A stretch of 64,000 nt of DNA, taken from IMG/VR virus record IMGVR_UViG_3300037400_002732, positions 110,808 through 174,807 of that record; one strand, written 5' to 3'. This document shows, piece after piece, positions 23,040-63,857 of this stretch (its first letter is position 1; every line of letters starts with the position of its first letter). The translations under genes and the position numbers were made by a program. This DNA comes from a virus. Lineage: Duplodnaviria; Caudoviricetes. Below the pieces are notes generated by a model. The model did no database searches. It was not told where the DNA came from and saw only the letters and a list, made by a program, of their open reading frames with translations.

Positions 23040-23267
23040 ATGGACTTGAAGGAATACAACATGCGCCAGATCGACGAGATTGAGAAGCACAAGTGGATCG
23101 AGTCTGAAAAGGCTGGACATGACTTGGGCGAGGCTGCTCGTATTGACTGGGTCAAGAAATATGCGGCCAAGTTTCGAGAAGAGAACCCGCTAGATGAGCC
23201 AACTGATAAACTGCCTACAGAAAATGAACTGAAGGCAGATAATGGCGTTTCAACAGATATTCATTGA
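23040..23267 (+). CDS. DUF4032-like small protein
   Basis: EIEKHKWIESEKAGHDLG...DW motif; SD GAGGGG; ATAAGCTATATT -10-like element at 23006-23017. Confidence 0.65.
   Translation: MDLKEYNMRQIDEIEKHKWIESEKAGHDLGEAARIDWVKKYAAKFREENPLDEPTDKLPTENELKADNGVSTDIH
23205..23212 (+). promoter_or_regulatory. Putative late promoter GATAAACT, inside the upstream ORF
   Basis: ACTGATAAACTG 30 nt before ATG 23242. Confidence 0.65.
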
Positions 23268-60619: not shown

Positions 60620-60643
60620 AAGCCCAGTTTCGACTGGGCTTTT
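60620..60643 (+). terminator. Intrinsic terminator
   Basis: AAGCCCAGT-TTCG-ACTGGGCTTTT. Confidence 0.85.
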
Positions 60644-60699: not shown

Positions 60700-61701
60700 A
60701 TGAATATTTCCGATTACCTAACCAACCACTTAAACTTGTCGCAAGCCCAAGTTGAGGCTATTGATAAGTTGGCTAAGATTTGCGGCATGAAGTCCCTTTT
60801 CGAAGCCTTTAACTTCGCCAGCCGCGTCAATAAGGTGAACGCAAACCGAACGAAGGCCGCCGAGCAGAACCTCAATAACCAAGCAGCAGACAGCTTGCTG
60901 ACTGACGTTGATTTTAATGTAGATAATGGATCAACGTTCAACGAACTTTACAAGCAAAGCCGTGGTGCAACTGGCCAAGAAGATGCAGAAACCGTGGATG
61001 AAGATACTACTGCGGAATTGGGCGAAGTGGCTCTGAACGACGATAACACATTATTCTATGGTCTAACTGGTATGCGTGACCGAGATTCGAACGACGAAAC
61101 CGGCGAGTATGACTTGGGCGGTATGTCAAATGTGGATTTGAATAATGCTAAGGAAACTATGTCGGCGAGCGTCGATGCCAATGAACGCGAGGATTTGATG
61201 GACGTTATTAAGATGCTTTCGTTGGCCGCCAAAACTAGCGTAGCCGATACGAAGAAGTTGATGATTGCTGCAGCCGCGTCCCTTGATGATGATTCTGATA
61301 GTACTGCTGGTAGTGAATATGACGCTGGCCTTGACTCCGTTGTGAGTGCTAACGACGTGAGCGAAAAGGTTAAAGACCTTGCTGCGCAAGCGGTCGAAAA
61401 GCAAGACTTCCGTCTACAGGCTAAGATGGAAGAGTTCGCGTCTAAATATCCGAAGAATCCGTTTTCGAAAATCTTCCTTGCAGACAACGTCAGAGCCAGC
61501 CATAGATCCGATGCCGCTGGCGTTGACTCTGGCGCAGTGAACAAGCAGCGCGAATCGTACAATCCGATGGCATGGAACAGAACGAAGGCCCTTGCTCAAG
61601 CAGCTCTTGCACGTCAGCGTGAAAAGATGAACGCTGGCAGCAACATGTATAACGCTGACCTAGCTCGCGCCAGAAGACTCCAAGAAGCCGGAAAAATCTA
61701 A
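60700..61701 (+). CDS. Acidic putative internal head protein
   Basis: Late motif; N-terminal segment ending KSLFEA. Confidence 0.6.
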   Translation: MNISDYLTNHLNLSQAQVEAIDKLAKICGMKSLFEAFNFASRVNKVNANRTKAAEQNLNNQAADSLLTDVDFNVDNGSTFNELYKQSRGATGQEDAETVDEDTTAELGEVALNDDNTLFYGLTGMRDRDSNDETGEYDLGGMSNVDLNNAKETMSASVDANEREDLMDVIKMLSLAAKTSVADTKKLMIAAAASLDDDSDSTAGSEYDAGLDSVVSANDVSEKVKDLAAQAVEKQDFRLQAKMEEFASKYPKNPFSKIFLADNVRASHRSDAAGVDSGAVNKQRESYNPMAWNRTKALAQAALARQREKMNAGSNMYNADLARARRLQEAGKI

Positions 61702-61759
61702 TAAAAATGCCAAGTTTTGTAAATTTTTATAAATATTTGCATTTTTTCGCTAAAAACCC

Positions 61760-61788
61760 TTGCAAATGGTTTTTAAATTTACTAAACT
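61760..61788 (+). promoter_or_regulatory. Sigma70-type promoter TTGCAA-N17-TAAACT for the leader and tRNA array
   Basis: Exact 17-bp spacer with AT-rich upstream DNA. Confidence 0.7.
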
Positions 61789-61810
61789 TGGTACAAAGAG
61801 GTTAAAAACC

Positions 61811-61930
61811 ATGCAAATGATGCAACATAACATTAAACTCGTTGAACGCAATAGTCAGTTGGCACCAAAGGCCGACCGCCTCTTTGCAGCATATACGGGT
61901 TGCGGTTATGAGCAAAAGTTGCACCGATGA
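61811..61930 (+). CDS. Putative leader peptide (39 aa) of the tRNA array
   Basis: SD AGAGGT; MQMMQHNIKLVERNSQLAPKADRLFAAYTGCGYEQKLHR; codons 25-31 are complementary to the downstream terminator arm. Confidence 0.7.
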   Translation: MQMMQHNIKLVERNSQLAPKADRLFAAYTGCGYEQKLHR

Positions 61931-61957
61931 TTCCTTTTAGGTTGATGTTTGAATGGG

Positions 61958-61991
61958 AACCCGGCTGCAACTAAAAGCAACCGGGTTTTTT
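61958..61991 (+). terminator. Intrinsic terminator / attenuator in front of the tRNA array
   Basis: AACCCGGCTGC-AACTAAAA-GCAACCGGG followed by T6. Confidence 0.75.
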
Positions 61992-62014
61992 AATACCCTC
62001 AACCAATACATTAT

Positions 62015-62088
62015 GGGTCATTAGCTCAGTTGGAAGAGCGTCTGATTTGCACTCAGAAGGTCGTCGGTTCGAGCCCGACATCGATCCA
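62015..62088 (+). tRNA. tRNA-Ala(TGC) with bulged acceptor stem
   Basis: Cloverleaf; anticodon loop TTTGCAC; T loop TTCGAGC; G3:U70; A73. Confidence 0.9.
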
Positions 62089-62180
62089 GTAAATTGGCAA
62101 GCTCGTGAAGCTTGCTGGCAGTTTGAAAATTCGGATGATTATTTGTTTGCATCTCGTAAGAGATGTGAACGCAAACCAAA

Positions 62181-62248
62181 GGACATTAGCTCAGTAGGAA
62201 GAGCGCTTACACAAGTAAGAGGCCACGCAATCGAAATGCGTATGTCCA
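62181..62248 (+). ncRNA. Anticodon-less tRNA-like RNA
   Basis: GGACAT/ATGTCC acceptor, intact D arm, CTTAC-ACAA-GTAAG 4-nt loop, ACGCA-ATCGAAA-TGCGT T arm. Confidence 0.75.
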
Positions 62249-63008: not shown

Positions 63009-63857
63009 GTGCTCATGAAACAGAAAGTTCCCGATTCCGACATCATATTATATGCAACTAATTGCAAAAGCATGCGCGAGGGTGCAATGAAATGCGGATT
63101 AGATGCGTCGTCATTTTATCGACGTGCTAAAAAATTAGGTGTATATGATGGCAATCGCTGGAAGAACGAATGTATTGCTAAGGCTGCTAAGAAGGCCGAC
63201 GAATTAAACCAACCATTGGTATGTCCATATTGTGGTAAAGAATGTAAAAATAAGATGTCGTACGCTGGTCATACGCGATCGTGTCCTAATAACCCCAACC
63301 GCAATTATGTTAACCATTCTGTAGGACACAAAGCTTGGAATGCTGGTTTAACAAAAGAAACTGATGAACGTTTACGACTAAAGGGTGAATGCTTACATGA
63401 ACGGTATAAAAATAAAGAATTGTTGCCTCCGTGGTTGGGTAAAACACATACAGAGGAAACTAAACAAAAGTTATCTAAAGCGATGCAACTAGCTCATAAA
63501 GAAGGTCGAGCACATAATATTGGTGAAAGTAGGTGGAACAATGAACATAGTTGGCCAGAAATATGGATGATAAATGTATTAAAAAATGAATTTGGCTTTA
63601 TAGAAGGCATTAACTATAAAACCGAGTATTCGTTTCATAGATTCTCATTAGACTTTGCATTTGTTGATGAAAAAGTTTGTATTGAAGTTGATGGTAAACA
63701 GCATAAAACTGATAAAAAACAACAAGAGCGAGACGCCAATAAAGATCGTTTACTAATTGAAGAAGGTTGGCGTGAATTGCGAATACCGTGGGTGGAATGC
63801 TGTAATGATACACAAAAGTGGATTAATATAATTAAAGAGTTTTTAACGGGAGTATAA
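63009..63857 (+). CDS. Free-standing putative homing endonuclease (Zn finger, NUMOD3, DUF559/Vsr-like nuclease)
   Basis: CPYCGKEC...HTRSC; GKTHTEETKQKLS; FSLDFAF...IEVDGKQH...GWRELRIPW; visibly AT-richer than flanking genes; start may be ATG 63015. Confidence 0.8.
   Translation: MLMKQKVPDSDIILYATNCKSMREGAMKCGLDASSFYRRAKKLGVYDGNRWKNECIAKAAKKADELNQPLVCPYCGKECKNKMSYAGHTRSCPNNPNRNYVNHSVGHKAWNAGLTKETDERLRLKGECLHERYKNKELLPPWLGKTHTEETKQKLSKAMQLAHKEGRAHNIGESRWNNEHSWPEIWMINVLKNEFGFIEGINYKTEYSFHRFSLDFAFVDEKVCIEVDGKQHKTDKKQQERDANKDRLLIEEGWRELRIPWVECCNDTQKWINIIKEFLTGV

Follow-up and report, generated by a model that had tools for sequence, protein, structure and literature searches.

A conserved translated leader with an intrinsic terminator precedes the tRNA array of a jumbo T4-like phage and may act as a ribosome-dependent attenuator

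In the window analysed here, a stretch of 64,000 nucleotides (nt) of the Caudoviricetes record IMGVR_UViG_3300037400_002732, a large tRNA array is preceded by a short leader that encodes a small open reading frame (ORF) and ends with an intrinsic terminator. An earlier note, made from the letters of the window, had described this leader as a candidate translation-sensing attenuator that switches on the array. We found that the architecture it described, namely a conserved, promoter-proximal, translated leader with an intrinsic terminator before a large tRNA array, is kept in six phage lineages. From these sequences and their predicted folds, we tentatively propose, with confidence that falls a little short of even, that the leader is a ribosome-dependent transcription attenuator of the phage tRNA operon and that it would act through a hairpin spanning positions 61917-61972. 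The earlier reading is right in outline and wrong in the helices that it named. We infer partial and regulated termination, with the position of the ribosome as the signal. The features of the unit are the following:

61760..61788, plus strand: sigma-70-type promoter, TTGCAA (-35 hexamer, 61760-61765), 17-nt spacer, TAAACT (-10 hexamer, 61783-61788)
61795..61801, plus strand: Shine-Dalgarno sequence AAAGAGG, separated by 9 nt from the ATG start codon (61811); unchanged in lineages A-D, where this distance is 7-9 nt
61811..61930, plus strand: leader ORF, 39 codons and a TGA stop (61928-30); nine alleles known, of 36-40 codons
61812..61816, plus strand: region 1, UGCAA overlapping the start codon; predicted to pair with 61919-61923
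61917..61926, plus strand: region 2, 5' strand of the candidate antiterminator, in the last ORF codons; ends 2 nt before the TGA and is invariant in all lineages
61931..61958, plus strand: inner hairpin of the candidate antiterminator, in the stop-to-terminator spacer; its core AGGTTGATGTTTGA is invariant
61958..61991, plus strand: intrinsic terminator (5' arm 61958-68; loop 61969-76, 8 nt; 3' arm 61977-87; T-run to 61991)
61992..62014, plus strand: variable spacer of 23 nt; 16-25 nt and diverged in relatives
62015..62088, plus strand: tRNA-Ala(UGC), first gene of the array, from tRNA prediction and an Rfam match

The window makes up the final 64 kb of a 174,807-bp IMG/VR viral contig with a CheckV completeness estimate of 46%, and it carries T4-type portal, baseplate wedge and sheath-stabiliser genes. 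Because related records are 348 and 355 kb long and 91-93% complete, the source is a jumbo T4-like myovirus of roughly 350 kb. Judging by sample names only, the related scaffolds from the European Nucleotide Archive look like sequences of rumen or gut metagenomes. Using the 333-residue protein encoded upstream of the leader, we found 16 relatives at 79-100% identity, and their contigs provided loci L002-L016 and L031. More alleles were collected with a TTG-extended, 56-residue version of the leader frame and with a peptide profile, which yielded Joint Genome Institute contigs L032-L038 and IMG/VR contigs L039, L042 and L043. The loci fall into six lineages, A being that of the window, B a second ORF allele in an A-like background and C, D, E and F the others. 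The portal proteins of D, E and F are 94%, 81% and 80% identical to that of the window, respectively. A blastn search of a phage GenBank collection returned tRNA matches only and no relatives, and nothing was retrieved from IMG/VR with the two proteins encoded upstream or with exact words of the promoter and the terminator. A pattern scan of metagenomes with an 18-mer of the promoter gave 14 matches, all by chance.

In all six lineages, the order of the unit is promoter, ORF, spacer of 24-28 nt, terminator, variable spacer of 16-25 nt and tRNA-Ala(UGC), the first array member being either this tRNA or a tRNA-like sequence with a UGC anticodon. The unit is present in a single copy per genome and is found at the 5' edge of the tRNA region in every lineage. 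Sequence inspection located every feature of the earlier note where it had been placed. A simple consensus scan listed neither the promoter nor the terminator, the latter being missed owing to a mismatch in its stem; we nevertheless consider both real because they are conserved in the relatives. Just beyond the transcript on either side, the spacer of the promoter and the one after the terminator have diverged between lineages, and the spacer between the stop codon and the terminator is largely invariant. Likewise, the gene upstream of the leader is down to 27% identity between lineages A and D, whereas the leader unit is kept as a block.

The ORF itself shows an unusual combination of constraints. 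Because its nine alleles differ by at least five single-codon insertions or deletions, all in frame and without any frameshift, and share a common LHR-TGA end, we regard translation of the ORF as being under selection. The frame is thus kept in the relatives, as would be expected from the earlier note, and the constraint is at the nucleotide level. Peptide identity between A and E or F is only 62-65%, lower than that of the portal protein. We compared how often codons for the same residue are spelt differently in the leader ORF and in the portal gene:

A vs D: 1/37 in the leader, 36% in the portal gene (P = 1.7e-6)
A vs E: 3/23 in the leader, 44% in the portal gene (P = 1.8e-3)
A vs F: 2/24 in the leader, 44% in the portal gene (P = 1.5e-4)

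The synonymous sites of the leader are 3- to 13-fold less variable than those of the portal gene, in which fourfold-degenerate sites differ at 48-52%. An ordinary small gene is recognised by purifying selection on its protein with synonymous sites left free, and the leader ORF does not show this signature. As far as these alignments indicate, it is constrained on nucleotides, not on protein. Within the leader, invariant nucleotide blocks alternate with freely varying ones, and the codon usage of the last ORF codons is unremarkable. Overall, the pattern is in line with a functional RNA in which the frame and the place of the stop codon also count, and it does not suit an ordinary small protein gene. 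The earlier note had also pointed out that the peptide contains 19 of the 20 amino acids and no Trp; this is correct, with P = 0.026 among 39-residue stretches of the proteins of this phage, and the various alleles use 18-19 different amino acids.

The terminator stem comprises 11 positions with one C.A mismatch at 61965/61980, and its energy is about -15.2 to -15.3 kcal/mol when folded alone. In relatives, the terminator reaches -16.9 to -22.9 kcal/mol, the C at 61965 that causes the mismatch being confined to window-type contigs. Besides this, one G-C pair of the stem is replaced by G.U in D, and the stem of E and F is longer owing to a matched C/G insertion. A consensus scan and sequence inspection revealed no promoter-like site between the terminator and the first tRNA. 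The stop codon is 27 nt ahead of the terminator stem (24-28 nt in relatives). In Escherichia coli, direct repression of a terminator by the ribosome takes place only at shorter distances, and termination efficiency is maximal beyond ~30 nt (PMC4824070). Any effect of translation must therefore act via an alternative RNA fold.

The best candidate for such a fold is the hairpin 61917-61972, which the earlier note had overlooked. Its 5' strand, region 2, forms 10 pairs with 61962-61972 around a 1-nt bulge at 61965 (-14.8 kcal/mol). The hairpin as a whole encloses the stop codon in an internal loop and shares positions 61958-61972 with the terminator, so that the two structures exclude each other. 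Its predicted energy is -18.3 kcal/mol in the window and -15.8 to -18.3 kcal/mol across lineages despite interior insertions and deletions; indels alter the flanks of the inner hairpin, yet this hairpin re-forms in every lineage. As long as position 61984 has not been transcribed, pairing within the 61917-61972 hairpin is the minimum-energy choice for the terminator arm, and the probability of this hairpin in nascent RNA is 0.9-1.0 in 6 of 7 variants. When the 3' arm is blocked, the terminator arm pairs with region 2 in five of the six lineages. Upstream, in the full-length minimum-energy folds of lineages A-F, UGCAA(C) at the start codon is paired to (G)UUGCA of 61918-23, giving a layout of 1:2, 2:3 and 3:4 segments. 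An untranslated leader would either terminate by way of 1:2 or allow read-through by way of 2:3, and thermodynamics prefers 2:3 in 5/6 lineages.

The terminator has unusually strong upstream competitors, as indicated by a shuffle test and by comparison with other terminators of the phage. Among 90 terminator-like hairpins on both strands of the 175-kb contig, that of the leader ranks first for the energy gained by pairing of its arm with upstream sequences (-13.3 kcal/mol). The typical AAGGC...GCCTT terminators of this phage gain 0 to -5 kcal/mol in this manner. When the stop codon is occupied by a ribosome in the prediction, the upstream pairing still available to the arm amounts to only -2.3 to -9.3 kcal/mol. 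Region 2 falls inside the footprint of a ribosome at the TGA (61928-30), the A site being no more than about 15 nt away; the footprint size was taken from PMC4824070.

In the mechanism that we propose, the host-type promoter would start a leader RNA of ~197 nt containing the ORF and then the terminator, 23 nt before the first of ~30 tRNA genes. A ribosome that reaches the stop codon in time would cover 61917-61926, the terminator would fold and transcription would stop. If the ribosome lagged or stalled in the ORF, or possibly if none were loaded, the competing hairpin would form first and the polymerase would enter the tRNA array. Slow translation elongation would in this way increase tRNA output. 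The leader might more specifically be a general elongation sensor, a delay at any of the 36-40 codons for 18-19 amino acids being enough for the 61917-61972 hairpin to form, although we consider this extension doubtful. Depletion of host tRNAs, or their cleavage by defence nucleases, would be expected to cause such a delay, and replacement tRNAs would be made on demand and turned off once translation recovers. This would constitute a homeostatic loop between tRNA supply and ribosome speed.

Several observations weigh against attenuation of this kind. At equilibrium the terminator wins, with a probability of at least 0.94 under every ribosome mask that we tried, and the switch would therefore have to be kinetic. 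Neither the antiterminator nor the 1:2 helix shows covariation, every paired position being invariant in the former and both strands in the latter. Nascent RNA of lineage F, folded unmasked, gives the competing hairpin a probability of just 0.03. Alternative pairings arise easily in the leader owing to its many copies of the self-complementary word TGCA, and once the terminator is left out, the ORF region shows no unusual stability (z = -0.93, -0.69 and +0.23). Lineages E and F lack a good Shine-Dalgarno sequence and have the A-rich AAGAAAAG in place of AAAGAGG. No leader allele contains a run of regulatory codons for a single amino acid. Finally, the ERN, LA, F and LHR residues of the peptide are invariant, which could reflect a function of the peptide itself.

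The earlier note had attributed the switch to two other helices, the first of which involves an upstream part of the ORF:

61884..61901, plus strand: 5' strand of the 13-bp helix, exact in the window and decaying in relatives

The complementarity exists as described, TTGCAGC (61884-90) and CGGGTT (61896-901) pairing with 61958-61970 around a 5-nt bulge (-17.1 to -17.9 kcal/mol), and only 1.2-1.3% of dinucleotide shuffles or random genome windows match its energy. In the other lineages it weakens:

Window (lineage A, C at 61965): -17.9 kcal/mol
Lineage A with T at 61965: -15.5 kcal/mol
Lineage B: -14.1 kcal/mol
Lineage C: -13.3 kcal/mol
Lineage D: -15.5 kcal/mol
Lineages E and F: -11.7 kcal/mol, the shuffle mean for the window's own arm being -12

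Three pairs are lost in B and one in C, and in E and F a C is inserted into the terminator arm without a matching change in the ORF; conservation and covariation of this helix, on which the note had relied as a check, were thus not found. The idea that a ribosome completing the ORF would mask it also fails: the 5' strand of the helix precedes the stop codon by 27-44 nt, which is beyond what a terminating ribosome covers. Folding with ribosome masks, another check that the note had suggested, gave the high equilibrium probabilities of the terminator mentioned above. The second helix, between 61934-44 and 61968-77 in the terminator loop, can indeed be written as 10 pairs with one bulge. It is weak (-5.7 kcal/mol) and not conserved, its pairs being lost in C and D and, by inspection, in E and F, which speaks against its role as an antiterminator. 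These comparisons indicate that the two helices are not the conserved mechanism.

Among the alternatives to a ribosome-dependent attenuator, the plainest is that the ORF, together with its promoter and terminator, forms an ordinary small early gene, that the array is transcribed through constitutive leakage or from long upstream transcripts and that the pairings are incidental. T4-like phages commonly contain small ORFs that each have a promoter and a terminator, and small coding sequences are interspersed among the tRNAs of Aeromonas phage 65.2. The terminator predicted at equilibrium in every condition and the invariant residues of the peptide family are also in line with such a gene, as are the terminators found closely before same-strand genes elsewhere in the window, for instance at 60620-60641 before the gene at 60700. 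We nevertheless hold this explanation to be rather unlikely. The synonymous sites are far less variable than those of the portal gene while the peptide is at 62-65%, the reverse of purifying selection at the protein level; the conservation extends to the stop-to-terminator spacer, and the spacers just outside the transcript diverge. The first rank of the terminator for upstream competition is left aside by this explanation, and in every lineage it would place ~30 tRNAs without a promoter of their own behind a stem of -15 to -23 kcal/mol. The earlier note's exact mechanism, with the 13-bp and loop helices both acting as antiterminators masked by the ribosome that completes the ORF, appears very improbable in view of the uncompensated decay of the first helix, its position relative to the stop codon and the weakness and loss of the second. 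On its side are the exactness of the 13-bp helix in the window, at a level reached in ~1% of cases by chance, and the presence of this helix in the minimum-energy fold of nascent RNA ending at 61968-61970. Moreover, the C at 61965 weakens the terminator and strengthens the helix, and with the stop codon occupied, the terminator arm falls back on this helix in alleles A1 and A2, the window included.

Factor-dependent antitermination would give translation a secondary role only: at a defined stage of infection, the polymerase would be made resistant to the terminator by a factor from phage or host, or by the RNA acting as put or nut sites do. Timed read-through of terminators is a classic phage strategy, as exemplified by lambda N and Q and by HK022 put, and nucleotide conservation from the transcription start to the terminator, with diverged sequence right outside, would agree with it, as would the invariant blocks in the middle of the ORF, which the attenuator model does not need. 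Since it leaves unexplained why the frame and the stop position are kept through at least five in-frame indels, and since we identified neither an Rfam family for the leader nor a candidate factor, we deem this scenario improbable. To a similar or slightly greater extent, we doubt that the terminated 197-nt transcript is itself the product, i.e. a trans-acting or dual-function small RNA (sRNA) that also encodes a peptide and is adjacent to the array through synteny. A promoter followed by a conserved RNA of ~200 nt and an intrinsic terminator with a U tail is the standard layout of an sRNA gene, and the nucleotide-level constraint would suit it as well; attenuator RNAs are able to act in trans, as is reported for rnTrpL (PMC6614838). 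No target is known or predictable, however, the body of the RNA is not unusually structured, the best Rfam match of the leader (RybB, E = 0.61) is below threshold and array transcription would be left unexplained. An sRNA would in any case be compatible with the attenuator model rather than exclusive of it. Apart from the tRNAs, Rfam gave only chance matches, and the leader peptides matched no Pfam or PHROG family.

We tried and rejected several other candidate elements in the leader. A structured-RNA interpretation of the ORF body was abandoned, as the fold z-scores are unremarkable and the RNAalifold covariation term is positive. A helix between variable 5' and 3' parts of the ORF, P2, shows clear compensation between A and B (own pairings, -8.2 and -7.9; cross pairings, -2.3 and -4.1), but we do not claim it, given its absence from E and F and its permutation rank of 3/24. 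Pairing between the ribosome-binding region and the post-stop spacer is no better for own pairs than for cross pairs, which provides no evidence for it. A boxA-like word, CGCCTCTTTGCA, spotted by eye, was dropped since it is missing from allele B. In addition, a predicted 174-residue protein, P0021, takes the TGA of the leader as Trp and runs through the terminator and two tRNAs; it is presumably an artefact of the genetic code used by the gene caller, because the standard code leaves the long genes of the window intact.

The -10 hexamer and the 17-nt spacing of the leader promoter are invariant across lineages, and the sequence of the spacer is free. The -35 hexamer varies within the consensus (TTGCAA, TTGACA, TTGACG and TTTACA). 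Transcription would start near 61795, placing the Shine-Dalgarno sequence at or near the 5' end of the RNA. One more feature adjoins the promoter:

61752..61759, plus strand: block AAAAACCC directly upstream of the -35 hexamer; by inspection, a run of A and then CC(C) precedes the -35 hexamer in all six lineages

This block is possibly an UP element or the site of a regulator. A similar promoter, TTGCAA-N18-TAAACT, is found elsewhere in the genome ahead of a 108-residue ORF. In E and F, 57 nt separate the -10 hexamer from the ATG, in contrast with the shorter 5' untranslated region of A-D, and this 57-nt region (L042 and L043, reverse strand) contains a covarying stem-loop, paired as GAAATCCCAC/GTGGGGTTTC in one form and as GAAATCTACA/TGTATGATTTC in the other. 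The T4 late-promoter word TATAAATA at 61728-35 is conserved here, but it occurs 3 times per strand in the genome vs 4 expected, and we did not call it a late promoter. Another word, TTGCAATTCAAATT, occurs at least 6 times in the contig, at 23258(-), 69766(-), 73918(-), 98940(-), 167944(+) and 167997(-), the last two sites being 57137 and 57190 of the window, and sometimes forms divergent pairs. It looks like a class of phage promoters or operators other than the leader promoter.

The gene upstream of the leader (window 60700-61701; L039 1839-2885; L032 1041-2942) evolves very fast, with 27% identity where that of the portal is 94%. Its product ranges from 333 to 633 residues, of which the first 35 alone are well kept, and belongs to no PHROGs family.

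On the other side of the leader, we counted up to 29 tRNAs in the stretch examined in relatives and 36 tRNA matches in the 348-kb record, all of them downstream of the leader and on the same strand. The first gene, tRNA-Ala(UGC), has at least three strongly different alleles (window 62015-62088; L002 4818-4890; L006 4816-4888) next to identical or nearly identical leaders, and as judged from these loci the tRNA array is mosaic and the leader fixed. Right after the first tRNA is a hairpin (window 62096-62116) with a CGTGA or CGAGA loop, also present in L002, L032, L033, L039, L042 and L043. Its stem changes on both sides (AAGCT/AGCTT, GAGTC/GACTC and AAGTC/GACTT), and it is followed by a conserved GCAG-TTGA and is devoid of a T-run; in the tRNA precursor, it may serve for processing or for the binding of a protein. 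A tRNA-like element at 62181-62248, uncalled by ARAGORN, occupies the same array position in lineage C (L032-L038). Genes for HNH or DUF559-type endonucleases (window 63009-63857) are found at varying array positions in L004, L006, L008 and L011, as expected for homing elements.

The putative attenuator resembles those of amino-acid operons (trp, his, leu, thr, pheA) in that a promoter, a short translated ORF and a terminator tens of nt before the first gene follow each other. As in trp/his-type attenuators, the 5' arm of the terminator has another upstream partner, the stop codon adjoins this partner such that ribosome position can choose the fold, and the segments are ordered 1:2, 2:3 and 3:4; the likeness is drawn from sequence and predicted folds. 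In contrast with them, phage tRNAs rather than biosynthetic enzymes would be regulated, the ORF is longer (36-40 codons) and it lacks a codon run for a single amino acid. In attenuators of the ermK, vmlR, bmrCD and lmo0919 type, which control resistance genes on bacterial chromosomes, a ribosome slowed by a drug in a short upstream ORF switches a terminator to an antiterminator. These sense general ribosome slowing and not one amino acid, which is the logic proposed for the leader, and they would be its closest functional analogues if it is a real attenuator. Unlike theirs, its output would be tRNAs, able to feed back on the very defect that is sensed.

The unit also shares features with T4-type tRNA units, namely a T4-like phage, a tRNA cluster that includes homing-endonuclease genes and a polycistronic precursor. 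A middle promoter is found just upstream of the tRNA cluster in T4 (PMC2330249), and early promoters are located 5' of the tRNA genes in other T4-like phages (PMC1524935). By sequence inspection, the early promoters of Aeromonas phage 65.2 directly precede the tRNAs, with neither an ORF nor a terminator between them. An ORF and a terminator separating promoter and tRNAs are seen in none of these phages. In the phages described here, by contrast, all six lineages have a 197-nt leader with an ORF and a terminator in between. As in pyrBI-type attenuation, termination efficiency would be set by how the leading ribosome is coupled to the polymerase; there, however, a ribosome within ~20 nt of the hairpin blocks it directly (PMC4824070), whereas the stop codon of the leader is 24-28 nt away.

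Phage tRNAs are now viewed as countermeasures to host tRNA-cleaving defences (PMC10264068, PMC11464382). In the literature that we searched, no attenuator is described ahead of phage tRNA genes. In T4 and its relatives, the tRNA genes just have a promoter ahead of them. Even if the terminator is merely leaky, frozen synonymous sites, a free-running peptide and a strict frame constitute an unusual mix, which may help to recognise regulatory leader ORFs in metagenomic phages. The element is short (~230 nt), and its natural alleles are a ready mutant series, making it simple to study in reporter fusions. If the proposed mechanism is true, the leader would be the first attenuator controlling tRNA genes, as far as the literature searched shows, and the first case in which the quantity sensed, ribosome progress, is directly repaired by the regulated product.

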